Assembly: GCA_036172245.1 (NCBI GenBank)
Contig: JAYWIR010000016.1
Coordinates: 372,001-436,000, forward strand
Length of the DNA stretch: 64,000 bases
Source of the DNA: Raillietiella orientalis
Taxonomy: Eukaryota
Direction: 5' to 3'
Notes under the pieces: generated by a model
What the model saw: only the letters and a program-made list of their open reading frames with translations
Database searches by the model: none
Told to the model about the DNA's origin: nothing
Position numbers and translations under genes: made by a program
In this document: positions 12,301-48,450 of the stretch, in pieces
Layout: every line of letters begins with the position of its first letter
How positions within the stretch are numbered: the stretch's first letter is position 1

Positions 12301-15300
12301 GCAGTGGGGACTCCATGTGCTCTTGAAGAAGGAGGAGGGGTTTTGGCACGGACTTCTCTCCTTCCCCTCCTCCATCGTCGTTGCCTTCCCACGAACCTTT
12401 CTTTATTTTCTATTGCTGCTGCCGCTTTGTTTTCTTCTCTACGTAGGTCTTCTATTGGCGTTGGCTAGCGGTCCGTGCAGCTCCTTGAGAAGGTGCTGCT
12501 GTCAGTCGACGCCTCGCTTTTCTCACTACCCCCTCCTCCCCTTCCCTCCTGCGTCACCGCGCGAATCCGAGATCCCTGTTGCTGCTTTGTGAGGCTGACT
12601 CGGGTCTGGCGGCGCCAGCGTCATTGCGGTAGTCGGTGTGGTCGTCGCGGTCTCTCCATCGCACCTACAAACATTCCCCCTTCCCCTTCTTCCCTTCCCT
12701 CCTCTCCGACCATCTGCTTCCCGTGTGGCGTGACCTCGGCCACTCCTCCTGCTCGGACACAGACGGCCCCGTTCTTCATGCTCTTCCAGGAGAGTCCGAT
12801 CCACTCTCTCTTCCGGGAAAAGCTTACGGATCCGCAATCGGCTAGAGGGCCTTCCGTGTCCTCGACCGAGGCTACGGACCAAGGAGATGGGGGGCGCCGC
12901 ACTTCACATGAGTGAGAATTCGTGAGCCTTAGGACGCCGCCCATGGGTCAGCAAAGACGAAAAGGAAAAGCAGGGGAAAAAGAGGGGAACCGGCACTCCT
13001 TAATTTCTGGAAGGATCCCGGATGGTCAACTTCCAATCTCAGCCGGTCAACGGGGGCATCCAGGAGTTTCCAGATTCCACCAGCGAATATCTAGAAAAAC
13101 CGGCAGGTTTTGATGCCCTGCGATTGGATGCTGGGGAAGAGGAAATTCTTCGGAATCTGGAGTGGATACTTGACCCGGTTCCAGGGGTGCTGGCACCTCA
13201 CAAAGGAGAGGGTTCTTCCTTCGCTTCCTTGAGCTTCTCATCTCCCTCTTTGACCCATGGCCAGCGAACGAGGCTTTTCCTGGGGAGTTCCCGTGGGCTC
13301 GGCGAGAGGCGGCGTTTGACCCGCGTCCACTGCCGAGGTTCGAACCCGCCTTCTTACCCTCGGCACCGGCGGTTTCTCAGCCGGCCGCACTGAGTCCACT
13401 TTGTCGGTTGACTTTCGGGGTCGAAGGTGCATCGCCTGTTCCTGTTTCGACTACTCGGATCCGCGCTCGGTCTTTCGGAGGGTGTCCCAGTGCCGGTGCG
13501 CTCTTCTGCCCTTGAGGAACATCGGGGTTCTTGGAATCCCAGGATCACAAGAAAGAGGACGATGGCCACAAGAATCGGCTGCTGGGTCCGTCTGGGAGCG
13601 TAAGGGAGGACTCGCGGAGCCTCTTTTCTTTAGAGCGCCCTCTGGAACGCTGCCGCTGTGCCCTTTCGAGCGGGCAGCACTGAGCAAGTGCGATGACGAG
13701 GTCCCCTTTTCTCGGGGCGAGGTGAGGTCGCATGGGCGGCTGCGCGCCGGAAGCCCTTTCGTAGCCGGTCGGTACCTCCACCTACCCCTCCCCTCTCGTC
13801 CAAGCGTTGCCTTTCGATGCAGGAGGTCAGGGTGTCGTGCCTGCTGTCATGGAGATGGAAAAGCAGAGCTCAACGAGTGAAGACCCTTCGACCTGCATCC
13901 CAGGCGTTCGACGGCAAGGCCTTTAAGGGACGGCCAAGGCTTCCGGCCTGCTTTTCTCCCTCCCTTGCCCTTCTTTCTTTCACTCTTGTTCCGCTTGCGA
14001 AACGGCGAAGCCGAGCCTGACGTCACGCGGACGGCTCAGCTCTTGGCTTCCGACCGGAGCGCAGACTCCAGAAGTGCTGGAGGGGGGGGGTGAAAAGGGG
14101 GTCGCGGGTGGGAGCAGTCATAGTCTCTGCTGCTTCAGTCCTCCTTTCCGGAGCTGTTGGGCATCCGACTTATGTGGGCGCAGAGAAGGCTTTCCCGGAA
14201 TCCCGCGCGGTAGCTGCGGTCGTCACGGCGCGCAAGGGTGGGTGTGGCTCGAACGGATCGATCCTGATTTCGTGACTGCCTGTTCGATGCGAACCGCCCG
14301 CCGGCTCCGGAGACTCCAGCCTCCTGACCGCGGGTGTTCTTAGGGAGGAGTCGCTCCGCTGGGCAGACGGGCGGGGAGTGCTCCCGACGACCCCTTTCGT
14401 CTCGTGCCGGCCGCCGAGAGCCCGGAACGACTCGGCCGACCTGCTGGCTCTGCAGATCACCGATCGATTTCTTCGGGCCTCTCCGAAAGTGCTTTCCTGG
14501 ACTCTGGATGTCTCAGGGGTTGGAGCGAAAATCTTCCAGCACGCGCATCGTTTCCAGGGAAAAGAGAGAGGGAAAGAGGAAAATGGGGAAAGGGAGGGGG
14601 GGGGGGGGAAATCGAACTGAATGCCTGGAAAGAGGGATCGCCCCGGCCATCCAGTCTCGAGGTCGTGGACTCTGCTCCTCGGGTCTGCAGGGCGTCATTA
14701 TCTGGCGTCATAACGGAGTGGGTAAACCGTTCCCGGGTTCAGGAAAGACACCAAAGGGGTTGTTCCTCTGTCGGTTCGGATGATTGGGATCCGACGCTCC
14801 TGCGTCTCCCGTCTCCTGTTTAAACAACCGTCACCCGTTTCCCCCTCCCTCTGCGAGGACCGCTCCTCACGGCAATGTTTTTCTGAGACGTCTTTCGCGG
14901 ACGCGGAGACGTGCAGCCCCGGCGAAGCTTCTTGCCCCGAAAAGCACTCTCCTGCCGGCATAAATTTCTCCTTCCCCCCTCCCTTCCATTTTTCTCTCCC
15001 CACTCCTTCACTCCCGAAGAAGACGTGCTGAAACGCGGCACCAGCATCGCGCGGGATGCCCGAGGGTTGGCTCCAAAAAGTTCCGTCTTTCTCTTCTTTT
15101 TCCTTCTCGCGATCGAACGCCGTGAGCTGCCGACCCTTTTATTACAGGTAACCGTGGGGTGCGAGATCAAACAGCCCTCCAGCCCGCCGTGAGGACGTTA
15201 CCGAGACGTGGAATTCCCGTCTCCGCTGATGAGAGATCCCGGAGACGTATTTCCTTCTGCCGGAAGGAACGGAAAGATTCCAGGATTCGTTTGGGAGTTG

Positions 15301-18300: not shown

Positions 18301-20594
18301 GCGCCCCCGCTGACGCTCCCGCCCGCATGAACTTGTTGGGAGCTGCCGTGCCCTCTCCCATTCCGCGTCCCATCGCCCGGATGCCTGGAACGCCCTCTGC
18401 CTCGGTCGGCGGCACGTTCCATCTCAGGAAAATCCGGAAGCTTCGATCCGCCGCCGACGAGCGGGAAGTCCTGGGACCGCGGGGAGCAGAAGCCGTGTGA
18501 ATCAAGAAGGGATGCTCCTTGAGAGAGGACTCTGAGGAGTACCACTTTGAGGGAAAGTCTTCGAGGGGAAAGGGGAAGGGGGAGGGGACGCCTGTTCTTC
18601 TGCGTCGCCATCGTCTGGCGCCCACAGGCCTGCGGGAAGTTCCTCACGTTCCAGGAACCGGAGCTGGCGAAGTGCGTAGACCCCTCCCCCTTCCCAGGAA
18701 GATCCGAGGGCGTATCCATGGACTGCGGGTTGTCCAAACCTTGGTAGCGGCCTCTGGAGCTCCGGACGAGGAGGGAAAGGCGCACCGCTCTTCTGCAGGG
18801 CTGCGCGGCGCTCGCCGACGGGCGCACCCTCGCGGCTCAGCTTGAAAAGCGAGGGGGATGGCGATCACCCATCGGCAGGCCATCTTTTGAGGATTCATCC
18901 AAGCTGACGGATGCCAGGGTCAGCGGGCCTCCTCCAGGATGGATGCCCTGCGCAGTTTCCTTTGTGGATGCGCGCGCTCAAGGCCCAGCAGTGGATGCAG
19001 TGGCTCCCTTGCATTCGAGGCAACGAACCGCCGCCGCTGGCGCCTGGGCTCACAGGAGCCAACGCAACTTGTTCCTCCTGAAAGATCCCCCCGAGTTACC
19101 CTCCTTTCTTTCGTTCTACCTTCCTCTCTTCGACAGAGCGGACGGCGGAAAGGGCATCGGACGGCGACCTTGGACATTGCTGCTCCGCCACCCTTATCTC
19201 TCAGAGAGGCACGAGGGTGCTGTCCCACCACGACGAAGTGGGATGGGGAGCAAAGTGGGTCCAGCTCGTCGTGATCTCCCGGCAGGTGGCTGCCCTCTTT
19301 CCCTCGTCGCTCCCTTCCCTGCTCCATCGTTCTCTCCGTCCGCTTCCATCCAAAGGGCTTCGCGTTCTGCAGGCGGGCCGCATGGCGCGTCCGGCTGGTC
19401 GCCCCTCCGGGAAGGCGCGGGCGATCCTTTCGGGTGTCCTTCCTCCTGGGGGACGTGTCTTTGCAGGATCTACTCTGTCCCCTACCTGCTGGTCATGCTT
19501 CTGTTCATCTGGGTCGGTGCCTTCGGCCTACTGCTGCCCACCCTCCTCGGAGTGTGGGGAACGTTCGGTATGAACAGAACCATCAGCAGTTGCAGCATCA
19601 TCCCGGTGAATAACGAATCTCCCAAAGAGTTCTTATTCGTGTTCGGCTTCCTGCTCCCCTGCGTCATCATCACCGTCTGCTACGCACGCATCTTCTGCAT
19701 CGTGCACCGGGCACACTCGCGGGCGGCCGAGTACGGCAAGGGGCCGCCGGCGACCGGCGCGGCGGACTCCAAGTCCGTCTCCGCGGTCATCCTGATGTCG
19801 GAGACCAACGCCACGGCAACGACGGCAGCCAGCGTGACTCTGACCGAGGAGGCCGCGGACTCATTCTGCCTGGACGTTCCCTTCCCGGACGGCGGGAACC
19901 CTCCTCCTCCTCCCGTCGTCCCCCCTCCCCCTCCCTCTCGCCGGAAGCCGGCCGCCACCGCCGCCTGCTCCCCGGTCCTGAAGAAGTGCGGGGACGCACT
20001 CCGCGGGAGCAGGAAGTTCTCTCTGCCGGACTACCTGCTCAAGAGGTCCCCGTGCGGCGGGCGGAGAGCGAGCAGCTGCTCGCCGCCGGAGCCGTCGTCG
20101 AAAGGTAACGACAAGGGGGAGCGCGCGCGCCGATCTCCACGGCCACCGTCCTCCCCGCAGCGCCGAGCCACGCGTCCTCCTCCGGCGAGCTGGGCGGCAG
20201 CAGGCTGTGGACGAGGCGGTCCCGCGCGGCGACCGCAGCCGCGGCCGCCGCAGCAGCCGCCGCAGCCGCGTGCGCGGCGGCCGCCGGCAGGTGCGACGAC
20301 GACCGCGACCCCGGCGCCGCCGCGGCGGCGGCGGCGGCCAAGCTCTCCGCCCAGGACAAGCGCCTGCTCAAGATGATCCTCGTCATCTTCTGCAGCTTCC
20401 TCCTTTGCCACCTGCCCATCACGCTGGTGAAGGTGTTCAGCACTGAGAGCGAGTTCCCGCTCCTCACTGTGCTCGGCTACGTGCTGATCTACCTGACGAC
20501 GTGCGTCAACCCGTTCATTTACGTCGTCATGTCCACCGAGTACAGACAGGCCTACCAGAACTTCTTCACGTGCGCAAAGTCCCCACCATCGTAG
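6184..20594 (+). CDS. moody-like: Class A GPCR, moody/Tre1/CG4313 (GPR84-like) family; spliced CDS join(6184..6375,11837..12075,19467..20104,20161..20594), 500 aa
   Basis: Seven hydrophobic segments with rhodopsin-family motifs: TM1 GVPGNLVT, TM2 NLSASDLL, TM3 ITINRY (NRY variant typical of this family), TM4 W, TM5 CYARIF, TM6 DKRLLKMILVIF...CHLP, TM7 NPFIY; all introns GT-AG with compatible phases 0, 2, 1. Exact orthology (moody vs CG4313 vs Tre1) not determined. Confidence 0.92.
6940..6961. repeat. Poly-G run (~22 nt); similar runs near 14595, 17017 and 22586
   Basis: Directly visible homopolymer. Confidence 0.9.
8290..8720 (-). mobile_element. Decayed LINE ORF1 fragment in GPCR intron 1
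   Basis: Weak nucleotide similarity to ~57960-58035 (aaagagtttt...gc.t.t..aa) at the 5' end of the LINE relic. Confidence 0.3.
10600..11240 (-). mobile_element. Decayed LINE ORF1 fragment in GPCR intron 1
   Basis: ctgcggcacaaacctcgtcct at ~10843 resembles ctgcaacgacaagacctcttgtcct at ~39068 and the reverse complement of ~60050. Confidence 0.35.
11837..12075 (+). CDS. GPCR coding exon 2 (TM2-TM3, NRY)
   Basis: Acceptor ttttttttcag|CTG; LRNATTAFIINLSASDLL...ITINRYVKIRYPQSYD; donor AG|GTACGG, phase 2. Confidence 0.93.
13000..13083 (-). mobile_element. Internal fragment of the long tRNA-headed SINE
   Basis: ttctggaaggatcccggatggtcaacttccaatc...gattccaccag matches the SINE body at ~27570-27645 and ~36170-36220. 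Confidence 0.7.
13084..13182 (+). mobile_element. ~98-bp fragment of the Utopia/NeSL-type RT region
   Basis: Reverse complement of ~43568-43667 with one substitution and one 1-nt indel; both encode EYLEKPAGFDALRLDAGEEEILRNLEWILDP. Confidence 0.92.
13280..13400 (-). mobile_element. tRNA-derived head of a second SINE-like family
   Basis: The minus strand reads ...gactcagtgcgg...ggcgggttcgaacctcgg (B-box GTTCGAA); the downstream body differs from the main SINE. Confidence 0.45.
19467..20104 (+). CDS. GPCR coding exon 3 (TM4, TM5, first part of a long ICL3)
   Basis: Acceptor tctttgcag|G completes the AGG codon; IYSVPYLL...CSII...SPKEFLFVFGFLLPCVIITVCYARIF; donor AAG|GTAACG, phase 1. Confidence 0.9.
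20161..20594 (+). CDS. GPCR coding exon 4 (end of ICL3 with poly-Ala, TM6, TM7, short C-tail)
   Basis: Acceptor cctccccgcag at 20160; the frame runs into KLSAQDKRLLKMILVIF...NPFIYVVMSTEYRQAY; stop TAG at 20592-20594. Confidence 0.9.
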
Positions 20595-32192: not shown

Positions 32193-35100
32193 TTTGTCAC
32201 CCGGTTGCGCCGGGACGTTTATTTTAAATCCTCTGGGAACTGTGTTCCCAGGAAAGGGGAACAGAAGATGGGGAGGAGGGTTCCCGGCACTCAGGCCGAG
32301 CACACTGAGAGTTCGGAACGGGTGGGAGGGGACAATAAATAAATAAATAGGGTGGGAGGGCGGGGATACGGGTATGCAGTCCGTTCCTAATCTCAGAACT
32401 GGCGGTGAATGCCGGCAATCTCCGTCCTCACTTCTCCGTCCTCCGTCCTCACCTCCGGCAATCTCCTCGCTTCAAGTTGTGGCCACCCGGCAGCCAGTTG
32501 CAGATTGCAGGCTGCACTGTCGGGGACCGATGTTGGGACCGCTCGCATCTGCAATACGTGGCGGGCCCTGACAGTGGCGCGGACGCAGCAAATGATTGCG
32601 ACGACCGCTATAAGAGAAAGACCGCCACGCGTGAAGAAGCGGCGCATCCAATCCACTGTGGGGTGCAGGAGCGCTGAAGACAGCCGCCGCCACAGCTCCT
32701 GGAGGGCACCGCATTCAAATAGCAAATGCGGAAGCGATTCAACCGTTCCGCATGTTGCACAGTTCAGGGACACAACTCCCCCGGAAACCAGGTGCGCGCG
32801 CTGGTTGCAGCACAGACCCCAATGCACCAGCAGAAAAGCGTCCTGTTTCCACCGAAGTGGGAAGAGAGTCGCGTCCAAGCACGGAGAAGGTGTTCCCTTC
32901 TCCGTGCTTGGACGCGGGAGGGGCATTCCGAGGACTCGCTCCACCGGAGAAGCCCCTTGACACGAAGGCGAGGGGTGGCAGCGTCTGGCAGCTCGCAAGT
33001 TCTCAGGCCGCCCAGAAGTCAAGTTTCGCCTGCGATAGCGCAAGCGACCTCCCACCTCGCCGGTAGGTCACTGTCGTCTCGCACCATCAGGGCAGACAAT
33101 GCTTCGGCGAGTGGCGTAGCGGCTAGGCGTGTCCACTGGTCCTGGTCTTCCAGCACCTCCCCCACTGGACAGTATGAGGAAGGGTTCACGCAACGGAGTT
33201 CCAAACGGGACACATCCTGTTGCGCTGCCCAGGACGATAAGGCTTCCTGCCTCCAGGCGTTGAGGTTCGTTGGCCGGCAGGAGATCCACGAATGCGTTCC
33301 CAGAAGCAAGAGGAGCTGCTTTAGAGGGAAGCCGAATCCTCTCAAGACGCGCTGCGTGCGCAGGTGGAACGAACGCAGTCCGTCGCCACCCGTGCAGTGC
33401 CGCAGCAGCAGCCGCGCTGGAGCACACCAGGGAGTGATCCAAAGCTGGGCGCATGCGGAACTGCACTAGCAGTCCGATCCGCTCCAGAGTCAGATGCCCA
33501 TCCCGGCATCCCGCCGAGGAACCGCCAAGTCCTTGAGGCGGATCCTGGACCTCGCCGACCCCCACAAGGCGTTTCGCAACAGACGTTGCGCCCGGCGCTG
33601 AGCCGAGTAGGGAGGGGGACAAACAAAAAAGAGGGAAGAGAGGCTCGTCGAGTCGGCGGGAGGCCACGGAACGAAACGCCCCCGAAGGGGCCGATGTTCC
33701 TCCGGAGATTCGGCGTTCTGAAAACAGACACCGTCCGGCGCGGGCTGAGTCGGGGATAAAGGGCCCGGAAGAAATCCGCCCTTCCTCGGAGCTTCCCCTC
33801 CCCTCCGCTCCGGCTGCTTCTTCCCTGCCGGCATGAGAATCCGGCGCCTGGTTGCGGGCGGCCAATACCTGCAGTCATCCCTCGGGTGCTGACCCGCGCT
33901 CTCCGGGCAGGAAGATGGTGCGAACCTCGGGCTGGAGCGCGGAGGACCGGGGACCGCTCGGCCACTCTCCCAGGCGTCCTTCTCCTTCCCCGCTGCCACC
34001 TGCAGGAAACCCTACGGGCCCTCTCCTGCGCCGGCTTCGGAAAGTCCGCTGCTTCCGTGTGGTCCGCGGAAGGCAGCCACGCAGCGGGGCTGACGGAATC
34101 TCCCGCCCTCGCTCTCTAAGCGACTCCCTCTTTCTCGAGCGTCCCTCAACCCGGAAAGGCAACCTCCCCGCTTCCTGAACGCGCACCTGGCGCGCCGCGC
34201 TCTGGACGCAGCCGAACGCCCGGCTGCCAGGGCCGCTCGCAGAAGGGGGGCGCGGTTTCGGGAGCGGGAGTCACGGGAAAGCAGACTCAACCTTTCTCCC
34301 TGCGAGTTCACAGCTTCCTTCAGATGCCCCTCCGTATCCATGGAGGCGAAGCGGCAAATTTTTTCCGGACTTTTCGAATCCGGGAAGAGCCAGGACGATC
34401 TCCCCTGGAATGAGCCCTTGAGAGGAGCGCGGCTGGTCTCCATCCTGGAAGAATATCCCTGGATCTCCCGAAAACTGCAACACCTGGCAGGGGAGGCAAT
34501 GGACATCTGGATCTGAAGGGTCATTGCCAATGCGAAACTATTCCCTCTCGTGTACTGCCTTGGCAAGGTCTCCCTGCAGGAAAAGGTCACGCAAGATAGG
34601 AGAACCTATCCCTGGCCATCTTTACTCCCTTAGCTCTGTCCTCTCTTGGGAGAAAAACGATGGTAGGCAGCCTGAGGGGTGGGGTTTCTTGTGCTTCACA
34701 TTGCAGAGACCAACCTCCAAGGTCAGCATGCTATTTGGATGCGGACGCGCAACTAGTGTCTTATAGTGTCCTCACCCACGGACTGCGCAGCTGGAAAGAG
34801 ACCTCAGGACTTTAACATAAAAGCTGTGAAGATGCATTACGCAAACGGTTTCGTGCCCTCCCTCCTTCCCTCGGTTGACAGCACACAAAGGTGTTCCTTT
34901 TGCACTAGGTAGTCTCAGGTAGTCGTCCATCACACAAGCTCCTCATGCATTGAGTTCTGGCACATCCCTGTAGGAGGAGGGCGAGAACGAAAGCGCATCC
35001 TCGAAGTGTGCCGGACGTCGGCAAACGGAATCGACTGTTGTAGGCTGTCACGAGAGTCGTCCGGGATGCGGGAATTTGGCTGCGATAATCCGCCACCCGA

Positions 35101-38100
35101 CTGAAGATTCCAGGAGTCTTTTCAGTGAATTCTTCATTTAGGAAGAACTCGCTGCTGCTACAGCAACTGCAACCACAGGTTAGCATGCGCGAGATGGTGA
35201 AGCCATGTCTGGCAGAGGAGCAGAACACGCAACAGAGTGAAGCCATCTCCGTCTCAGAATCCATGCTTCAGGAGCAAAGAGGAAGTCCTAACTGAATGAG
35301 CCAGTAAGGGAGAACTTCACCTGCACTCTGATGCAGCAGTTGGAGCGTCACAACCGATGATCCTCACTCTTCCTTCTACAACTTGTCTTTTTCACTTGCA
35401 GCTTGCAAATGTGGGACACACCCACGGACGACTTGTGCATAGACATTTCCCTCACGACTGCATCATTGAGAGCGCGGTCCCCATCCTTGTACGTTCCATT
35501 TTGAACGTTTATTCTCACTGGAAGGTCAGTGACCAGGAAAGAGTGAGCGAGCAGCTTAATCGCTGGGTTTCAGAAAGAGACTTCGAGGGAGAGCGGTGTT
35601 CGAGACAACCTCATGCGACGGTTGGTTTCTTCCTTGCTGTGCTCTTGCAGTTCTTCAGCTGGAGGTTCGAAGTTCCTGGAGGACACTGCTCCCTGCATGA
35701 CTGAGATGGAGCATCGGAACCTTGACGCCGCTTTGAGCAAGACCGCAGTCGCCTCCTCTCTCGTTCTCTTTTTCTTGCCCACCTCCTCTTAGAAGTCGTT
35801 TCCGCCTCTTACGCTTGGCAGGGAACCCCGAAGGGAACCTATTCCTCCTCCCTCCCTCCAGGGGAACTCCCGGAAGGGAGTCGCTCCTCCTCGCTTTTTC
35901 TCCGAAAGAAACTCGTAACGGATCCGCTCTTGGAATTTCTTCTCCGGAGGGAACCAGCAAGGGAACCTCTGAAGAGAATTCCGAAGGGGCGCTTCCGAAT
36001 TTCGCTGAAGGGTCGCTCACGGAAAGGATCAGTGCGCTTCTGACACTCTGAAGAGGCAACTCCCCGAAGAGGATATCAACCAGCTCCATGGCACTCGATA
36101 GAGGGTCCCTCCTTAGGGAAGGAACGGCTCCATTTTCACAACCGGAGGGGAACCATGAGGGCTCCTAGATTCCTGGAAGGACCCCGGAGGGTCAAATTGC
36201 AATCTAGCTGCTTCCACCGGTGCCGCACCCGAAGCCTACAGGCCAGACGGCGTCCTCCTGCATGAGGGCCTCGAAACCCATTTCTTGGCGTTGATCCTCC
36301 ACGTAGGGATCTCCCCACGTGGACGTGCCAAGTGTTGGGCTCTCCCAGAAAAAGACTTCAGCCGGATTCTCAATGGGGTCGTCAAAAGTCATGTGCGGCG
36401 TGCTGTTTTGTTCCGCCGCTCTCGCCTACGGTGGTCCTCCCGTTGATGCATGGCGCGTGCTGAAGTTCTGGTTCAGGACTGGGAAAACCGATAGCTCCTC
36501 TACTTCCGCTTCCTCTCGGCTGCGGAGGAGATGAGGCCGCTTTGGAAATGGCAGCGCCGTGTTGCTGGCGCCCAGAAAAACGAAGGGCTTATCGTCGAAA
36601 GGAAAAAAGACAAGCAACGTCCGAAATCAGCCTTCCCCCTGTAATTCCGGGTAGTCCGACGGCAGCTGCCGCTAAGCCAGAGCGCGTGCCACGAGCTCCC
36701 CTTTGGAGAAGGTCGGGAGAAGGAAGAAAGAAAATTCCCACGTGCTGGAGAATCTTGGGGAGGAAGTAGTCACAGGTGGTCTCCCGAAGCCTTCCTCATC
36801 TTGTGAAGGTACCTGCGAGCTCCTCTTCAAGTTTTCCATGGCAGGGCCATCTGGTCTTCCTCCTCAAAAAGTATGGATTCTTCTTCTCTGAGAAGGAAAC
36901 AAATGCGAAGAGTAGGTGCTTGTGTGGTGCAGTCCACTCCGCTTCTGGCGGGCTTTTTGGATCGGTGGACCACACTCCCATGAAGACCGATACACTTGAT
37001 GGCTCTCATCCGGCAATCTTTCAAAGATTTGCGATGAGTTTGGTTTCTCTCGATTCCTGCCCTATTTTGGCACGCCTCCGTCATCCTTTTCGTCCGATTC
37101 CCTCCTTACCTGCTGATGAATTCCTAAGAATCTTCGCCTGCCTTCGACGATGGAGAGTGCTTCGTCTCTGGCTGGAGTCGCTTCGAATCGCGACATGGGT
37201 TGTCTGTTGACAGTAGCATGTCAGTCTCTCCGGAGCTGTTTCTTGTCAACAGACAGCTTCCGGGATGGAGAGCGGGGAAACCAGCTGCGAAGAAGTTGCC
37301 GTCAGCGCTTCCGCTGACTGCTCGCAGAGTGCACATGCCACGTGGACTGTTCCGAACGTTCAGACTCCTGCTGTGGCTCTCGCGAGGATCAGGCTGCACC
37401 GCACCAGCCGAAGCTGCAAGAAGAGAGATGCACAGGGAAGCACAAGAATGAACGTGCGAAAACATCGAACTTTCTTCTTCCTTCCGAGGTTCATCGCAGG
37501 AAGCATCCGACGGCTTTGCCATCCCGTCCTTCTTCGGCGCCGTTTGGTGCCGTGACTGTGCCACGGAGCTAGAAGAGAGCTGCCGTCGCCGAGGCAGGAG
37601 GAGGTGCACGCTTCGCACGAAGAGGGCAGAGGCGTCATGCAGGCGTGCAGCCCCTCCCCACACGGGGGTGCGCGACAAACATGTGAGGGTCCAAGGGACA
37701 GCATCCAGTGCGCAGAAGCCACGTGCATTTTGGAGCAAACCATTCATATCAGGAGGCAACCAGAGCGCAGCCGTGGTCTCTGGATTTCGGACTTCCCCGG
37801 CTGTACCCCGCGAGTGCAGCCATGAGACGCGGTGCAGGGGTAAAGCAAGTGCCCGGGAATCATCACAAAGTAGTGCCAAAGGGACGTAGGTGAACAAATT
37901 CCGAGCATCCGTCGTTGCGAATAGCTTGGCTTGCTATGACATTCCAACCACGGCAGCTTCATCTTGAAGAAGGGAGAAAAAGAATCTCCTAACGAATAGA
38001 GAGCGCCCCGAAAGTTAGCAAAGATCTGAGCTTCCCTCGAATGCAATCACTGGTTACTCTTGTTCTGGAAGTCTCAGAACAGTGGAGCTTTTGATAAGGA

Positions 38101-39700
38101 GGAAAGAGATGAAATACATAGTCGTAAATATGATTAGCAGCTGCAATGCTGGCATCACGGCATTTCCTCCGAGGAAGACGAGGGGAGAAAAAAAAATCAA
38201 TTCGTAATTGCCAGTGCTTTTCGTTTCGAAGAGCACGTTGTTAGGGACAAAACCATTAGTCCGTTTCATCGTCTCGAAGGAAGTGACTGCTCGTACACCG
38301 CCAAAACTGCGAATGTTTGCAGACGGAAAAGGCGTTCCGGAAGCACCTTGGATCCGGGACCGCAAGGCCAAGCAGCGGCATCCAGTTCGCTGTCCGTGGT
38401 CGGACGCACCACTCCGTCTGGGAAGTCGCGATGCCTGGAGGAAGTTCGTTGAACAGCTCGGTGGGACCACACATGCACAGCTGCGCTCGGCTACCAAAGA
38501 AGACGCTCCAGAGGAAACTTAGATAGGGTGCTGACAACAGTTTGCACGCCCTTGTAGAACAGTCCTTCTCTTCTCTGGCTTCATCCCTGGGTTCCAGGAA
38601 GAGGCGTTGGGGAAGAGCGTAGAAAGGACCTCTTTTTGTTCGAGACAACCTCGTGCAATGGTCCTGGGATCACCCGCCTCGTTCTGCCAGAAAGAGCCGC
38701 AATCCAAGGGGAGCAGCAGACTCGACTCGAACTCCACTCCTGCTCCCCTTTGCAGTGGTCATCTCGAACGCCGGAGATCCCGCACATGCGAGGTCGCAGC
38801 CAAGGATGAACGGTTTCCGAGGGCAACATGCCCAGGCAGGCTCAGTGTCGAGGGATCCCTGGGAGTCTTGCGACAAGACCTCACCGAACCGTTACCGGGG
38901 CCATTTGGGGAAAGGGGGGAGGTACGCAGCGTTCATCGCAACGATCCTTCGCCCCGTTCGAAGCCACGCCTTTCTGAGATCCGAACGGCAGAATCGACAG
39001 CGGACCGCGGTCCATGCTCCTGCACTCCACCGCCACTGCCCACACGTCTTCAGAAGTTTGAGTGATCTCTGCAACGACAAGACCTCTTGTCCTCTGAGGG
39101 CCAGGAAACAGCTGCTGAACAGAGAGGCAGTGGGCTGTCCGCAGAGGTTTCCATCGGATTGGGAAATCCAGGATGCAGGTTTGCCTAAGGAAGCCTGGAA
39201 AAGCTGTAGCCTCGACCTCGGTTCAGTGGGGCATCGAAAAAGGAAGTGCCACACACGGTGAGGGAGACCTGTCTCTGTAGATCAGAAGACTCGGAGCGCG
39301 TATCTGTGAAACCCATGGCACACGATTCTACCGCCTTAGCACACGGAGATGGAACCTTGTGCGAAGATGGAACTCTTTTCCTGACTGCAAACTTGCGCAG
39401 ACTCGCAAAGGAACGCCCTTGCCAGGTACCTTGATTTCTGTTCATCCTTCTTCGCCCATGCGGGTTTGCACCCTCCTCTAAGAGCGCATCCGTGGTGTGA
39501 ATTTTCTGCAGAGATGAAACCAAGCGCAGCTTCGGCAGCTGTCAGCACGTTTGGACCTCGACCACCGCTTTTGGCAGGAGGTGCAGAAGAACTTTTCTTT
39601 CAAGAGTGTCTACAGGCACGCAGACCAGAGGATTCTCTCATCGGTCTCCATGCAAGAGGCTCGAAGTCAACCATGATGACCCATCTTTCAGTCTGAAAAG
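32193..39700 (-). mobile_element. Near full-length decayed APE-type LINE (ORF1, APE, RT, CCHC, 3' UTR), containing SINE copy C
   Basis: Ordered remnants on the minus strand: knuckle-like LPGHVA (~38830), PPDMN resembling GDFN (~37750), SGTLRGCAF resembling GVRQGCPL (~35000), FSYLA resembling YLG (~34600), CATCGTVESLPHLLFEC (~32740), family 3' stem-loop at 32193. Confidence 0.7.
35755..36320 (-). mobile_element. Long SINE, copy C (head missing; internal-deletion variant)
   Basis: Body matches copies F and G; its shortened 3' end matches copy E. Confidence 0.8.
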
Positions 39701-42090
39701 TCAGCTCACCTTCCGGGAGGATTCTGATGCACACCTATGATTCTATAAGACGTGTTTGGGTAGCGATACTCTCCTCCCATCCTCAACTGCTTAGAGATCA
39801 AAACTGATGTTTGGATGCTGGAGATTCCAATGTTCTTCTCTCTGCTTCAGGCAACTGTATTTCTTATCATGTTCTTGACTGAAAATCGAGAATCTCTTCA
39901 CTGACAGCAGCGGAACAGCCACTACATTCTAAGACTGTTCATGTCATAGCTTTTCATTCTCCAGGGAGACGATAAGCAATTGGATGACTCAGTCAAGTGC
40001 CTAGGCATTCCTGTTTGTTCTTGTTTTTCCTGACAAAGATCTGGGCCTGCGCTCATTGCATTGTCTTATAAGGATGCAGATTGCCCTGCACAGGAATACG
40101 GGGAATGGGAAGAGTATACCTTCTGGAATAGCACCGTGTACATCAAGGGAGAACGGAACGGATTATTCCGAATCACGTGACTACCGTCGTTTTATTTCTG
40201 CGACTATGCAAATGGCACCAATGCTTTCCTAACAGACTGACCCAGGGGTGGGTTGCTGCCCCGCCCGTACATGAATCGCGCCCTTCACTACTGTGAGGAC
40301 CTACAAATTCACGGTCTTGAGCCGCCTCTTTTGTTAGGAGCGACCTTCCGATAGATTAACCTACAGCAGGCCACCTACCTGGCTGTTGGATTCGTTCCCG
40401 AATCCCTCTGCTGCCGACTCCCCTTCCCGAGGGCAATCTTCGCCTCCATGACTGTCGAAAAAACGTTCAGCTTCCCCTTTATGGGTGCTTCGGGAAGCTT
40501 GGAAGGGAGGATCTCCTGTTTAATGCCACAGAGGCGACACTCCATAGAAAAAGCCTTGCTGGGTGCACCGAGGGTGTTTGGAGAATCCGCGCTTCCTTCT
40601 TCGCGGAGGATGACTTCTTAGCCTCGCGTTCCGAGAGGAAGGATTCCTTCTTAGAAAGGCAGGAAGAGCAAGTCATCCAAGACTTTTTTCTCTCTGGAGG
40701 AAAGTAACAGTTCGAGAATTTCTTGGAAGCCAAAGTGCGCCTCCTCGTTCCCGTGTTCCCTAAGCTCCGGGAAATCGACTGAATGCAAATCCTCAGACGT
40801 TCAAGGGGTCCCTAACTGAGGTGCGACTCCAAAGTACAGCCTCCATGAGGTCGGTTCCATGATGCTCCGGACTTTCTTAGAAGGGAGCGGCTGGATAGAA
40901 AGTAGAGCACCCTTACTCTTCTAAGGAACGGCTAACTCTTCAAGAACCCCGAGCAGAAATAGGAATAAAGGATATCGCCTAAAGCAAGACACTCTTCCGT
41001 GCTTTCAAAAGGTCAGCAAACTGCGACCCGGTAGTTGACCATGAGGGAGCGCTCGTTGATTGTTCCTGAGAGTACGAAAGTGTTTCTGGGCAGTTGGCAC
41101 TTCTGAGCAGATGAGCTCTTGTGGAGATCGATGCTCAGGAGCGTTTTGGAGACTTTGAATCCAAAGAATTAGATTTTGTAGCTGACCCGTTTGAGGAAAG
41201 GTGAGACATGACTAATGATAGGTGTTCGCCGATCAGGAATGGATACGCAATGGAGGGGGATTGTCTGCAGACAAAGAACCTCGTCAACTTTTTCCTTTGC
41301 AGGGGATGCATTAGGAAAACAAAAAGAAAACGGGTAGTCAAGATGATGAAAAAAATGGCTCACAATCACTAGAGATGCCATCCGCCATTTAAGCAGTACC
41401 CTTGAGGAAAATATCCCACAAGAAGCACTGCAGAGCTTTAGTAGACGTGAAATCAAATAGTCGACTCTGCAGGATTCGCAGCATTTTTTTTCCTGGTAGA
41501 GATGGATGCTGAAACGCTGCGTTGGGAGGCGCAGCAATATTCGGATCAACTCAATCAACAATCACGACGCTCTGCTGAAGTCGTATCTCCACGGAGACTC
41601 CTTCAGGAATGAGAGCGCATTCGTGATGTCCTGCTTCGAAAGTTCACACGATTCGAGTCTCCAGCTGCCCTTCTTGGATCCCGCATTCCTAAGGGTCAAG
41701 AGCTGGAAGAGTGGAAGGTAGGGAAAGTAGGCAGCACTCGCCAAACGCGACTACCATCCCTCTCTTTGCTGCTCCTCAGTCTGGATGCAAACTTTTGCAC
41801 TTTGATACCTCCAGATTTACAGATTCCCTCCATTGGAGGGAGCTCATCTACACAGTTTGCGAGAAGTCGACTCCAGCTTTGACGAAGCATTGTGTCTATG
41901 ACGTTGCTAATAGCAGCGTGGGGTGAATGCTTCCCAGGTGCAGGTTCTGGAAACGGATGTTTGATGAGCGTTCTGCTGACGCATCCCCCAGAACATCCTT
42001 CAGAGAGCCTGGTGATTAAGGCTGTCGAGTGTCCTCACCCGTTGGAAACGAGGGTGCAGAAGATGTAGCAATGGGGGATGAGGAGCATCG
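39700..42090 (-). mobile_element. Older decayed APE-type LINE, 3' portion (APE C-terminal part and RT)
   Basis: AGVDF resembling GGDFN (~41870), KKGSWRLES resembling GYWKLN (~41660), LHSVDF resembling LSLDF (~40780), QQG (~40555). Confidence 0.5.
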
Positions 42091-45000
42091 ACTTTGCAGC
42101 TCCAACAAGGCTGTCTTCGTGTTCAGGGGGCCGTGGAAGACACACAGGAAAAGACACGAGTTGAAGTTGCTTCCGCGTTTTCAGGGAGTTGGATCAGTGG
42201 TGGTGGTGGTGGTGGGGTCATGGGGTCATGGGTGGATCTGGTTGGGCAAGTAGGGTCGTTTGTTTACCACAGGGGCGAGCGGACATGGGGCTTTGGTGGT
42301 AGGCTGATGCTGCCTTGTGCAGATGTCCCTGGATGTATGAGTCACAGCTGCGATCATTCTGGCTGTGAGAGGTTTTGCGTGTAGCTCAGGAATGCCAAGC
42401 CTAGCCAGACCTAGTCATCATTCTTTGGGTCCCAAGCTCCAAGCTTATTGATGATGAGCGCATCTACGTGGATCGTTCTGCTGGAGCTGCGAACGTATTG
42501 AGCAATCTGGGAGCACTTTTTCTTCGCTGGCAATTTTGAACGAGTGTCGGCGGTTCTCGAAGGGGTTGACGACATCAATTATGTCTGCTTGAGAATCGTC
42601 ATAGGCAATGACATCGGGTCGGAGGGGGGAGTTCGCATCGCCCACTTGTCGATCAACCTGCAGTCTAGGCCGGTAAGGGCACGAGGCTTCAGCTAATTCC
42701 CTCAGAACCCAGTTGCGTTGCTAGGGGCAATGGCAGTGCCAAGGTGATATTAGCAGTTGGCGAGCAGGTGACAAAAAGATTTCTTCGGTCAGGTTCGATT
42801 TTCTCCTGCATTTTTCAAAGAATCCGGGACGCTTCATGTTCTCTTTCAGTGGCAGCAGGTTCGATCGTGCACGGTGGATAAAGCTTCAATATGGGAAGCG
42901 GAGAATCTCAAACCTTTGTAGGAAACTGCTGGAGGCTGGTTGCAACGAGGTACAATCCATGATCCTGCCCTGGTCTGGTTTGGCGACCAGGATGTAGGTT
43001 CTCCTCATTCGTTGTGTCGGCCGAATTGTCCTGGCCACTTGGCGTCTCCTTCAAGAGATGATCCGTTTACCTGGGACTGAGAGGCCCATAGGATCATCCC
43101 GAACGGACCAAGTCAGCGGGAGTCTCTTGGGGAATTGTCGTACTGCAGACCAGAAGCTCCTCGGATCGCCGAAGCATGCGCCAAACGGAGGCCCACAGTC
43201 CCCGTTCAGGTATCGGGCAAGGATGATGTTTGTCGGGAGACAACGGGATTCACTCCCTGCACTAAGGGAGCTGCGCGCGAGTTAGAGCACTCCAGGGCCA
43301 GGGGAGAACAAAAGCTTGAACGCGCAGTCGACACACATGAAGGAGCTCTCTTCTTGAAGGAGGGAACAGTCCATGCCTTTAAGGAAGAGTACTGTATAGA
43401 GGTGCCCCACGAAAGCAGCTCGGGGTATGGGAAGCACTTCGGATTTTAGTGCTTTTTTAACGACTTTGTCTAGCCGCTTCCAGAAGCCAAGCGGCTTCAG
43501 GTGTAGCCAGAGAGAGTGAGTGAGGGAAGGAAGGAAGAAGACCTCAAGGTTGTCCAATGTCTGCCAAGGAACCGGGGTCAAGTATCCATTCCAGATTCCG
43601 AAGAATTTCCTCTTCCCCAGCATCCAATCGCAGGGCATCAAAACCTGCCGGTTTTTCTAGATATTCGTATACTTCGCTGTCTCGAAGTGCCGGGATGGCC
43701 GTTTTGTTAACGAATAACAGCGTAGGCATCGTGCTGGTGGGGGAGAGGTGGGATACGTGGAAGGAGCCGCACTTATTGGGATCGGAAGGCCGCATCTCCT
43801 GGACGACGTCGTCATGCAGTCAACCGCAGCCTGCAGGTGGGCTGGGAACGGGGCAAGGTCAATGTCGTCAGCATAGGCCAGGTAAAAGGTGTTCAGCCTG
43901 CGTAGTATTGGTTTCAGCGCAAGGTTGAATAGGAGACCACTCAGTGAGCACTCCGGGAGCACCCTTGTCGGACCACATGCAGCGATCTGGACCGAACTCG
44001 ATGTGGTATGCTTCGTCCGGAAGCATGTAGACGAGCCAGCGTAAAGATCGTTAATTCCACAAAAGTCATCTCCTGTTCCTAAGTGTTTTAGAGTTTGCAG
44101 GAGGTATTCATGTGGGATAGAGGAGGATGCATCCTTGAAATCGCTCCCACCTCATCAATGTACGAGAAACATTTCAAGTCAATCCAAGAGATGCAGACGT
44201 TGCACTTGCGTCTTCTGCCGTCTTCTGTGTGGTTCGCGAGGCCCAAGTTATGTTCAGGCACGCCGTCGAAAGGGAGGAACCCTTTCTGCCTGGGGTTGAT
44301 GATGCCGTTGGGGAGGATCCTTAAGCATCTCTCCAGACACTTGGTGAACATTGTCCATCGTCTTACTGATCGCGATCAGTCGGAACTCCGCTAATTCACT
44401 CCCACCGGCGAGGTTATGTTTTGAGATGAGAACTGAATAGCCGTCCTTCCGGTCAGCAGGGAGTTTCCTGTGGGACAGGCGGATGCTAAAGAATTTTGCT
44501 AGGAGAACACACTGAGGATCCTCCCGGAGCAGGTGGTTGCAAGTTGTCCCATTGGAACCAGGAGAGATGTTTTCGCACGCAGTCAGGGACTCGGGCGTCA
44601 CCAGGGAAGAGAAGGGCTAGCGGTCCATGGGGTTGTGTGTGCTGTGTGTGTGAGGAGGGCGAAAAGGGAGGCAGCTCTAAGCCGGCGTCGAACTCAATGG
44701 TGCATGGAGGAGGAAGAAGTGTTGAGCTGTGGCACCCAAGTTCACGCCGCATTGCTTATCGCGAGCACCAAGCACTTCCGTCTTCGCCCTTCTGCGATTT
44801 ACCCGATGCATATTTTGTAATCTGACGCGATTGCACGCTGGAAGAGCCCTATTAGTTCCGTTGGTGGATCTATTGGGATGTCTTGGTCGAATATGATCTT
44901 GTATCCTGATGCGGAATTCATTAAGGAGCAGCAGAGTTTGTTCCCACGAGTCGATTCCTGGGAAAGTACATTCAAGCCTGCTTAGCGCCCTCAAGATGTC

Positions 45001-46893
45001 GTCGTGTGGGAAGGCCTCATGGAAATACGCGGGATGGAATCCGTAGGCGAGCTGCTGGGACTTTGGAGAGCTACATTCCTGTTTGATGGGTGAGTAAGGA
45101 GCGAAGAGACTTGAGGGTAAGCCCTCTTCCTGTCTGAGGGAAACTTCAGGTAGCCAGTGGATGAAGGGGAGGTGCAGGGAAGCAGCGTGCCAATTGGAGG
45201 AGTGTCTTCGTTCGTTGATAAGGCCTGGAACGTGTTAATGCTGTTGGGACGCCTATTCCGATCTGAGCCACGAGCGGGGGTCTCGTTTTATTTTTCCCGC
45301 TAGCCCCGGGGATGTTAACGCTAGTGTTCATCTTCCGCTTTGTGCGGACCACCTGTTAACCATTCTCATTTTGACACTAAGCGGAAGACGCATTCAGCGT
45401 GGCGGCACGGGTCTGCTGTAAACGACTGGCTATCCTTTGGTGCCCTCGCAAGTGGTTCTGTAGTCCCTTTATATTGGGGAACGCCATCTTGCAATGGCTC
45501 AGGGAGCAGTGGAGCCACGAGGAGTTTGAACGGAGAGGTATCGGCAGTTTGCGTGTTCATTTATGTAGATGGGTGAGCTGCGGCGTTTGCAGTCCACGTG
45601 CACGACAGATAAGGAATGTGTGTCTCCTTATGTGTGTCTGGTGTGCACGCAGTAAGTGCCGCTCTTTTGTGAATGCAAGGATCGGATGGAGTACGAGGAA
45701 TCAGTCTCCCATTTGCAATCACTGAAGGTGCACTTCATGTGCCTGTGCTTTTCATTTGAGCGAGACGAAATTTGGCATTTGTTACAAAACGCCCGTATAG
45801 CCGAAACCACTACGCCAAGTGCCTCCTGATGTTTTTTTGCGCGTTCCTCCGCATTTGGAGCCACCGAGGAGCCGGAACAGCCAGAGATGGGGGAAAAAAG
45901 TGGTTTCGACGCATCAAGATCGTGCCACAATTGCAAGTCACCGTCGAGGAAGCAAAGGATATAGGCGCTGGACGTGGAATCCGACATTACGCCGCCTGTA
46001 TCAACAACTGCAGAAGATGTGTTTGATGTTTGTGCCACCCCAGCTAACCACAGCGAGCGTGGATTCAGCGCCAGCTGATGAGATGACCACACCAAGAATC
46101 GCAGGCAGCAAGTACTTGCAGCTAGTACTTGTTGGAGACACGTATGGCGGAGCCACTTGCAATACTTTCTACTTCTGCGGGGTACTACCAACCGCTGCGC
46201 CAGCGGTGCAAACCCCAAACAGGGGAGCCAGTCACCAGAACGAGCCTATGGCATTACAGTCCTTGCCGATCCGCGTGGCGTAAACAACCACAGCACTGCT
46301 AACCACCGTTTGTGGAGCAGTCCTGGGGTCTCGCCTCCTGCAGAAATTCCAACCGGCAGCGTGACCAGCACACACATTCAGTAGGGGCTGCTCGCCTTCA
46401 AGAGAGCTCACCTTTCATCTGAGCCGGGCACATAGTTAGATGTGGGGTACTTTCGAAAGGAAATTTCGGGAACCGATGGGGGGGTAAAAGCAAACTGAAG
46501 CTCATTTAACCGTCAAAGCAGAACTCGTAAAGTAAATCACTGCAGCGGAGGCCGTTAATCAAGGGGGATCAAGTTTTTTGGGTAGAATAATAGCTTTAAC
46601 CAAACCAAGCTCTAGCGACAAATGAGAGATAGAAAGTTTGCAAAAGCAAAGCTTGTTCCAGGTCAACACTCTTCAGAATTCCATGCACAAGGGCTACGTA
46701 CGAGGAACAAGGACACTTTACAACGCTACCTTGACCTGGGGATGGGGCAGCGACCGTACAAGCGACCGAAGGAGAACCAACGACCTGTCCTAGCACGACG
46801 CAGGGGCAGAACCACGGCGTACTGCAGGGGAATGGCGATCGGCGACTTCAAGCACGACATCCTCAGGTTGGAGATAAGTACGACCACCTTGAT
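42090..46893 (-). mobile_element. Decayed R2-superfamily non-LTR retrotransposon of Utopia/NeSL type (zinc-finger region, RT, restriction-like endonuclease)
   Basis: Colinear frameshifted motifs: PISGCS..FCNKC; LQNMHRVNRRRA; RLIAIS; FTKCL...INPRQKGFLPFDGVPEHN...CISWIDL; CSLSGLLFNL...LAYADD; YEYLEKP; PWQTLDNLEVFFLPSL; LRPDVI...IIDVVNPFENR (PD..D endonuclease); LGAWDPKND; SRDI. The 3' boundary is approximate. Confidence 0.88.
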
Positions 46894-46925
46894 ACTTTGA
46901 TCTTAGCCGAAAGGTCGAGATGCAT
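46894..46925 (-). ncRNA. U2: 5' fragment (~nt 1-33) of U2 snRNA fused to the 5' end of the retroelement; not a complete gene
   Basis: Minus strand ATGCATCTCGACCTTTCGGCTAAGATCAAAGT versus the U2 5' end ATCGCTTCTCGGCCTTTTGGCTAAGATCAAAGT as I recall it; GGCTAAGATCAAAGT is exact. Confidence 0.85.
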
Positions 46926-48450
46926 GGGAGCGTGTCTTCCAGGTATGCAGCCTTCAGCTAAGGTGACTCCGTGGATCATCGAGACCAAAAGCCCGCTACT
47001 ATGTTCCTCGAAGGTTGTTCCGTCCTTGCCGAATCTTCCATGGGCACCGGCTGCTCTCTGAAGGCAACTAGTAACATAGGAGGGCAAGGAGGAGGAGGTG
47101 CTAAACCCGAGATTTCCCTTCGGTACAGACTTCCGACAGACTGCACGACAAATTCTTCCTCTGGAGAAAAGCTGCAGTTGGGTGTTCTCTGGCAGTGTGC
47201 GCATATGCCAGCCCCAGGGCCATTGGCAAACTGCTGCAAGGAGAAAGAGATGAAATGGAGAGCTCCTCCAAGCCAGAGTTGATGGCTCTCAAGGAAGCCG
47301 GTCGTCAGCCGCGAGCATCAGCAGATGGTAAAACTCGAGTAGGTAATTCGGAGACGCCGGGGACGCGAACTGGACGCTGACGCATACATATTGCCATGCT
47401 CCCGTACTTGCCAGCTGACCCACAGAAGTGGCCACTGTCGCAGAGATTTCTCAACTCAGACGGGAACTCCATTCAACAGATGTGTCGAGATGAGCGCGTT
47501 TCTCGAAGCGCCTGTCTGCTCTGTCCGTCAACAGAATTCCATTTTGGAGACTTTCGAGAAAGATTCTTGTGCTCCTGGCATCAGCCTGTCATTGCACGGC
47601 TTTTTGTCTTGGAAGTTCCGGGATTGGATGTTCAACTCGAAGATGGCGTGCTCCGCGTCACATCTGTTTTCGACTCCCTCGCACCGAATCTTCGTCTTAA
47701 GGGTCTCCGAAGCTCTCCAAGGAACTTTCTTTAATGCTTTGCCTGTTTGTCTGTCGAGGCTACAGGTATTTCTTGAGTGCCAGTTCACTAAATGTAGCCC
47801 AGGTCAAGAGGCCACCGTGACACGTTGTCAGGTAGTGTCCTCCTGTCGGCCCGGCGATAGACTTGAGGCTGGAGCTCTACTGAGAGAGACAGTAATAAGG
47901 GAAGCCATGAGCCCCTTTGATTACTCAAGGGATATACATTGAAAGCATAGGATGGGCAATGAATACTGAATGCGGCCCTCAAGTCCTTGACAAGCTGAAG
48001 AAAGCAGTCAGGTGTCTCATTGCCCGTAGCTACCTACCCGTAGGAATGAAACGAAAATCACATTATGCGTGGTGAAGGAACGCGATGCAAGCGGTATAAA
48101 GCAAAAACTGTTACAAGAGGACTTTCAGAAACCTCACGGAAGGAAAATGGAGCCATTGTGATGCAAAGGAAACAAAACTCAAACTGCCTATGACCTTAAC
48201 TCAGGAGGAAAGTGGACACTTCAGAGCATGCTTGTCGAAGTTCTGGTGAAAAGCTCATTTCTAGAGAAGGCAGTCCTCTGTACCTTTATCTGCGGAAGAG
48301 TAGCAGACCTCGGTGTTGCCTTGGTTAGCGACAGTTGTGAGCAAGTCGCTGCGCAGTAGTTCTCTGATAGGAAGTTCCTCCCTGTTCCAGGGTCACGCCG
48401 CTGCAGGAATAGCATTTCATCGGCCGCCCGCATGCAAAGACATGTCCTGA
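46926..48450 (-). mobile_element. 5' portion (ORF1 and APE N-terminus) of the LINE interrupted by the Utopia-like element
   Basis: HFCGSAG knuckle-like remnant (~47420); AYLEDT resembling FLQET immediately before the U2 junction. Confidence 0.5.

Follow-up and report, generated by a model that had tools for sequence, protein, structure and literature searches.

How did a short 5' piece of U2 small nuclear RNA (snRNA) come to lie ahead of a decayed retrotransposon? The question is raised by a 64,000-nucleotide stretch of the Raillietiella orientalis genome (contig JAYWIR010000016.1, positions 372,001 to 436,000), hereafter the window, in whose coordinates all positions are given. On its minus strand, at ~42.1-46.9 kb, lies a retrotransposon of the non-LTR (non-long-terminal-repeat) type, ~4.8 kb long, and at the presumed 5' end of this element we found ~32 nucleotides (nt) matching the start of U2. 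The history that fits these observations best, unproven and favored here only tentatively, is that a read-through transcript from a U2 gene was reverse transcribed in full and integrated outside a U2 gene.

The body of the element was recognizable from what remains of its coding sequence. Among 19 open reading frames (ORFs) scanned against Pfam, the sole relevant match was to RVT_1, at 43657-44151 on the minus strand (expectation value (E) 1.3e-7, 31.9 bits). Comparison of this 164-residue reverse transcriptase (RT) piece with 1.84 billion representative proteins by HMMER returned 91 relatives at E<=0.001 and 2 at E<=1e-10, the best with 40% identity (E 7.7e-11); a protein word-index search with the same piece gave no match. 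When these 91 distant relatives were aligned to the window by tblastn they covered 45159-42244, and residues 308-1115 of one of them, P0004, matched 44952-42478 at 27% identity over 853 columns (E 5e-55), while a second, P0005, aligned to the element in three pieces. The 808 residues of P0004 span 2475 nt of the element, and the ORF runs to its C-terminus without large gaps.

Within this body, Pfam and tblastn placed the RT region at 43444-45159 (N-terminal extension, fingers and palm with a YADD box, and thumb), interrupted by stops and a frame slip. Frame translation and BLASTP against P0004 placed the remnant of a CCHC-like zinc knuckle and a PD-(D/E)xK restriction-like endonuclease (RLE) at 42478-42830. 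The endonuclease signature, RPDVIAYDD..IIDV..FEN..EEK, aligned to residues 1064-1115 of P0004 with an E of 3e-8, and the knuckle near the C-terminus is decayed, its second Cys having been replaced. A profile of the apurinic/apyrimidinic endonuclease (APE) domain, described below, gave no signal in six-frame tiles anywhere in the window. These results bear out an earlier, sequence-only reading of the locus, which had described a minus-strand element of ~4.8 kb with RT and RLE motifs. That reading had also taken the frame to be frameshifted, and here it stands in part: tblastn and frame translation locate one local slip at ~44150-44380, but the ORF keeps mostly to one frame and the main damage is 17 in-frame stops (TAG, TGA and TAA) between 45051 and 42090. 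From these domains and their decay we conclude that the copy is old, dead and nearly full-length, and that it is a non-LTR retrotransposon of the RLE type.

Self-comparison of the window by blastn turned up one isolated fragment related to the element, at 13084-13182 on the plus strand. It is 98-100 bp long, lies 30 kb from the element in the opposite orientation, codes for part of the RT thumb and is 98% identical to 43568-43667, with the similarity stopping at its ends. As the element itself is heavily decayed, the fragment looks like a recent local copy, by templated repair patch or gene conversion, and not like a second insertion.

To place the element we used its relatives among named proteins and in metagenomes. 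The named relatives come from ticks, a barnacle, a springtail, a crayfish and nematodes, and one further relative carries the label R2DM under an accession that we take to be from a spider. The metagenome set comprised 80 loci kept out of 374 relatives, themselves from 584 pattern matches. A quick IQ-TREE phylogeny was built from 65 rows, admitted if they spanned 330 or more residues of P0004 340-860, with the window element read with X at its breaks. In this tree the element is the basal branch of a 38-row clade of arthropods (Shimodaira-Hasegawa-like approximate likelihood ratio test (SH-aLRT) 95), its own branch being long (2.58), and it stands apart from the R2 anchors L004, L007, L019 and P0062 (SH-aLRT 95). 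For comparison, L007 scored 423 bits and P0004 133 bits against R2Bm. A subset of 27 rows, picked after the first tree had been seen and analyzed under LG+G4, gave the same picture, with the R2 anchors apart (SH-aLRT 88) and a window branch of 1.62; forcing the window element to join those anchors cost 27.3 log-likelihood units (approximately unbiased (AU) test, p 0.024).

An N-terminal Ulp1 protease is described as the hallmark of NeSL elements (PMC4640811), and 3 of 20 proteins scanned (P0019, P0057 and P0073), from clades neighboring the window element, carry this protease. We tentatively regard the element as belonging to the NeSL/Utopia side of the RLE radiation, here in an arthropod genome. 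On the earlier assignment of a Utopia-type RT, the trees show an RT that falls outside the R2 anchors and has NeSL-like clades with Ulp1 as its neighbors; both trees were built without named Utopia, R4, R5, HERO or CRE rows, so that putative membership in Utopia itself is argued from this placement together with the U2 association.

Two side observations concern the metagenome loci. Contigs with R2 elements flanked by 28S ribosomal RNA (rRNA) were found (L007 at 1-175, L019 at 3810-4692, and also L004), and at their junctions the 5' flank ends at 28S model position 2327 and the 3' flank starts at 1889; since these positions differ, metagenome R2 elements may use two different 28S sites. In addition, non-LTR RTs of eukaryotic type were met on six contigs assigned to bacterial metagenome-assembled genomes (MAGs) (L081-L086; Planctomycetaceae, Opitutae, Flavobacteriales and an unclassified bin), probably through eukaryotic contamination of the bins.

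The U2 piece occupies 46894-46925, on the same strand as the element and 1.9 kb upstream of where RT homology starts. The Rfam model of U2, RF00004, aligned from its nt 1 to ~33 with 46926-46894 on the minus strand, and the piece differs from U2 by ~4 substitutions and one extra A. A 24-mer of the Rfam consensus, TCTCGGCCTTTTGGCTAAGATCAA, matched 46897-46920 at all but 2 positions, whereas no match at up to 3 mismatches arose when the 64 kb were shuffled 100 times with dinucleotides preserved; the exact 12-mer GGCTAAGATCAA occurs once in the window. Given a 24-mer match that no shuffle reached, the U2 identity of this piece is not due to chance. The claim that the first ~32 nt of U2 stand at the element's presumed 5' end thus holds on the strength of the 24-mer, the RF00004 alignment being weak. 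This is not a functional U2 gene, as only ~32 nt are present and the score lies below the Rfam gathering level.

The two end points of the piece are informative. Similarity to U2 sets in at 46925, which is nt 1 to within 3 nt (the placing of one indel decides), and stops after GATCAAAGT, at 46894, thereby reaching U2 nt ~32/33. Utopia elements are described as cutting the bottom strand between U2 nt 38 and 39, with variable 5' junctions (PMC4640811), and the piece ends 5-8 nt short of that site. A GTACTTATC-like stretch within the element was considered as a continuation of the match into U2 nt 39-52 and dropped, with only 8 of 14 positions agreeing; it does not figure among the 14-mer matches at up to 3 mismatches described below.

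Between the U2 piece and the RT homology lies sequence that we assign to the element by position and size. Relatives carry 308-569 residues ahead of their RT homology, by tblastn, so that a full-length 5' end is expected near the U2 piece. We presume an N-terminal coding region at 45160-46245 (minus strand), drawn from the ORF list and of a size that fits those 308-569 residues, and a 5' untranslated region at 46246-46893, defined only by its position, with the U2 piece on one side and the start of the long open N-terminal frame on the other. The presumed coding region is without a Pfam match, and its 205-codon open stretch at 45628-46245 contains Cys/His-rich remnants which, by eye only, resemble decayed zinc fingers. 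Utopia proteins are described as having N-terminal zinc fingers and as being without the Myb domain of R2 (PMC13580325). A ribozyme at the 5' end, hepatitis delta virus (HDV)-like or other, gave no Rfam match at E<=5, a result obtained with no descriptor search, and the predicted fold of 46680-46930 was unremarkable (z-score -2.1). By position and size the 1.7 kb between the U2 piece and ~45159 presumably belongs to the element, and the U2 piece would be contiguous with it.

If that contiguity is set aside, the U2 piece could be an independent, heavily 3'-truncated U2 retropseudogene or fragment whose downstream neighbor, an RLE element that may itself be 5'-truncated, has nothing to do with it. 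The interval from the piece to the recognizable element is without homology support over at least 650 nt and as much as 1.7 kb, as such a coincidence would allow. Against it, the piece shares the strand of the element, sits where a full-length 5' end is expected and accompanies a member of the RLE group that holds a U2-specific lineage. It is also without an A-tail and without flanking direct repeats: the longest word shared by its two sides is 5 nt, a length reached by 499 of 500 shuffles. We consider a coincidence of this kind quite improbable.

We then asked whether the remainder of U2 follows the element. The end of the ORF, with homology to ~42244-42322, and a 3' untranslated region were placed at 42090-42477 (minus strand) from tblastn end points and sequence. 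The sequence-only reading had put the 3' end at 42090, a position for which the window provides no confirmation. A (CCA)7 run is present at ~42205-42225, and the true end may fall anywhere from ~42205 down to ~41950; GC skew rises from ~41900, and composition suggests only an end at around 41900-42200. Around the element, only chance 7-mers were found as candidates for a target-site duplication, and arthropod Utopia families are described as making none (PMC4640811). The same survey places U2 on the 3' flank in 44 of 65 Utopia families and the U2 5' part ahead of the 5' end in 11 of 65. At this locus, Rfam searches at E<=10 of 41800-42400 and of 35000-42500, thus within 7 kb downstream, detected no 3' part of U2. 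The 14-mer TCTGTTCTTATCAG at up to 3 mismatches matched 5 times in the window against 4.2 expected, with none near the 3' end, and a single 12-mer match at 42157, with 3 mismatches, can be ascribed to chance, 0.2 such matches being expected in 600 nt. The reported absence of a U2 remainder downstream was therefore confirmed. No Rfam family reached its gathering score in the 64 kb, and no snRNA, transfer RNA or rRNA gene was found there.

This absence bears on whether the element ever left its usual target. An ordinary insertion between nt 38 and 39 of a U2 gene, followed by a deletion or rearrangement that took away both U2 nt 39-190 and the extreme 3' end of the element, would leave a similar arrangement, and the sequence upstream of the U2 piece would then be a former U2 promoter region. 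The piece does have the polarity and end point proper to a 5' junction, the 3' end of the element is undefined, and old copies in arthropod genomes are subject to loss of DNA. Set against this are the missing U2 remainder within 7 kb, a 3' side without any target-like motif, and the lack of any other snRNA gene in the 64 kb. In addition, the 4.8-kb body has suffered no large deletion relative to its relatives; because the ORF reaches its C-terminus without large gaps, the loss would have to have been confined to the 3' junction. We judge this history unlikely, while still regarding it as a serious competitor.

An on-target insertion would also have lost ground had the two flanks of the element been shown to join into one interrupted gene. 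The sequence-only reading had proposed this, taking the flanks for consecutive halves of the APE domain of a different long interspersed nuclear element (LINE), and the proposal failed every test. Nothing relevant was found in 74 flank ORFs on both strands by Pfam (E<=1 or E<=0.1), or in the flank ORFs by phmmer against PDB chains (E<=10); the right-flank ORF gave no match in the protein word-index search, an Atlas search with a flank ORF yielded no usable match, and none of 924 ORFs from related loci matched the flanks by tblastn. We also built an APE profile from 17 APE domains, out of the 19 of 28 metagenome LINE ORFs with Exo_endo_phos. Across 2526 six-frame tiles of the window it scored 2.6 bits at most, at a place near 2 kb that is outside the flanks. 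Joining the flanks into a single domain, in 6840 translations of 380 x 3 junction choices, gave a best score of -0.6 bits. Held-out APE domains scored 48-132 bits with this profile and were detected after 10% substitution, the signal fading at 20-30%; a LINE decayed beyond ~20% would accordingly escape detection. Self-comparison showed no uninterrupted paralogue of the flanks in the window. APE-like motifs had been picked out by eye on both strands, and after all these negative tests we judged them unreliable.

With the continuity of the flanks unsupported, the on-target alternative gains, and the description of the site as off target now depends on the missing 3' part of U2. An insertion outside a U2 gene is what this absence points to, and one copy cannot establish it. 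There is precedent for such insertions, since weak U2 specificity with insertions outside U2 is described for reptile and some ant Utopia families (PMC4640811). By the same reasoning, relaxed specificity of the present lineage cannot rest on one copy.

The history that we favor would have begun in a U2 snRNA gene, with a source copy lodged where Utopia usually inserts. Transcription of that copy would have started at the U2 start site, under the U2 promoter, giving an RNA led by U2 nt 1 to ~33-38. Target-primed reverse transcription would have copied this RNA to its very 5' end, and integration at a non-U2 place would have left the U2 leader there as a cap. At a U2 target the same leader would be invisible, and it might help 5' joining by homology, as postulated for the 28S leader of R2. 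Both end points of the piece, nt 1 on one side and a few nt before the target site on the other, are as a co-transcript predicts. R2 RNAs are described as retaining 28S sequence, as much as 36 nt, at the 5' end (PMC3774820), which offers a precedent for a U2 leader. Of the read-through transcript from a U2 gene that the sequence-only reading had proposed, what endures is a piece running from U2 nt 1 to near nt 38|39 with no U2 remainder downstream; the supporting argument from APE flank continuity does not.

A jump of the RT onto a U2 snRNA during reverse transcription would also produce a piece that extends to U2 nt 1. RTs of the R2 type and of L1 are known for template jumping. Known snRNA chimeras, however, contain the complete snRNA, into which the RT crossed at the 3' end. 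The present piece comprises no more than nt 1 to ~33 and ends beside the Utopia target, a limit expected of a co-transcript and a coincidence for a jump. Template switching is in our estimate the least probable of the histories considered.

Several observations weigh against a U2-led transcript, and we gather them here. The evidence consists of one copy, and an old one; no target-site duplication, empty site or second copy in the window marks either of its ends, and the argument from continuous flanks failed every test. With RF00004 the U2 piece reached 14.4 bits, where the gathering score is 46 (E 1.3, with 401 nt searched), and it was not listed at E<=5 in an Rfam search of 5.2 kb. The ~1.7 kb at 46893-45160 showed no profile similarity to the N-termini of relatives. 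Promoters of the snRNA type are not known to produce long transcripts with efficiency. Finally, a convincing U2 motif was absent from all 86 related loci taken from metagenomes and MAGs. Among the 80 metagenome loci there were 5 weak matches, none convincing, and the six MAG contigs had none; Rfam searches of 20 of the 80 found no U2 and two loci with 28S flanks (L007 and L019), and viral_contigs contributed nothing on the U2 flanks of relatives. Given 0 of 86 loci with a convincing motif and 0 of 20 with an Rfam U2 match, the U2 association of this clade lacks an independent demonstration.

Utopia itself, its presence in arthropods, the U2 sequence on the 5' side in 11 families and the weak specificity of some families are already known (PMC4640811). 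The main text of that survey, its supplementary junction figures aside, does not discuss transcription, promoters, ribozymes or leaders of Utopia. The passages on Utopia in PMC7650587 and PMC13580325 likewise do not address its expression, and PMC13580325, searched for co-transcription, does not mention it. By analogy with R2, one may speculate that Utopia-type elements are expressed as U2-promoter transcripts starting at U2 nt 1, that a 30-38-nt U2 leader is present in the transposition intermediate and guides 5' joining at U2 targets, and that ectopic copies such as the present one are fossils of this RNA; we hold this wider proposal more doubtfully than the history of the single copy. U2 leaders on dispersed copies would give direct sequence evidence of co-transcription from the U2 start site, and would also support a homology-assisted 5' joining shared with R2. 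If the proposal is true, the U2-like motifs at crocodilian off-target junctions could be carried leaders and not a target preference. One decayed copy is a lead, not a result.

An open frame of 542 codons at 18748-20373 (plus strand) contains an exon of a rhodopsin-family receptor (7tm_1, E 4e-11). It has 8 matches, of which the 6 named ones are all from arthropods (shrimp, krill and insects); the best, with 51-63% identity across 16-20% of the frame, are to 'moody'-type G-protein-coupled receptors from shrimp, krill and insects. These matches show the host to be an arthropod, despite a G+C content of 50-66%. CpG observed/expected is ~0.5-1.0 around the element, apparently with little CpG depletion, and the 64 kb hold 280 stop-to-stop frames of at least 110 codons. 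In a genome so rich in G+C and apparently so little depleted of CpG, long ORFs in the window are weak evidence for genes.

Four known systems invite comparison with this locus. Truncated snRNA retropseudogenes and snRNA/LINE chimeras resemble it in placing a short 5' piece of an snRNA at an ectopic site; unlike truncated retropseudogenes, the U2 piece here has neither direct repeats nor an A-tail, and next to it stands an element from the group whose target is exactly this place in U2. Elements of the NeSL-1 type, which are specific for spliced-leader genes of nematodes and carry an N-terminal Ulp1, are close in that Ulp1-bearing proteins (P0019, P0057 and P0073) adjoin the window clade in both trees, whereas Ulp1 was not found in the N-terminal region of the window element or in its nearest relatives, and the host is an arthropod. 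R2, the system now used in genome engineering (PMC13580325), has the same domain order. It differs in that the window holds no rRNA, that a clade uniting the element with the 28S-flanked anchors was rejected (AU p 0.024), and that an HDV-like ribozyme was not detected in the element (Rfam E<=5). From Utopia the present copy differs in being without a U2 3' flank, with U2 on the 5' side only and at a seemingly non-U2 locus. It otherwise resembles Utopia in having one ORF, in which the RT is central and a zinc knuckle and PD-(D/E)xK endonuclease are C-terminal, in being without APE, in its association with U2 at a junction next to nt 38|39 and in its arthropod host, and some Utopia families also insert outside U2.

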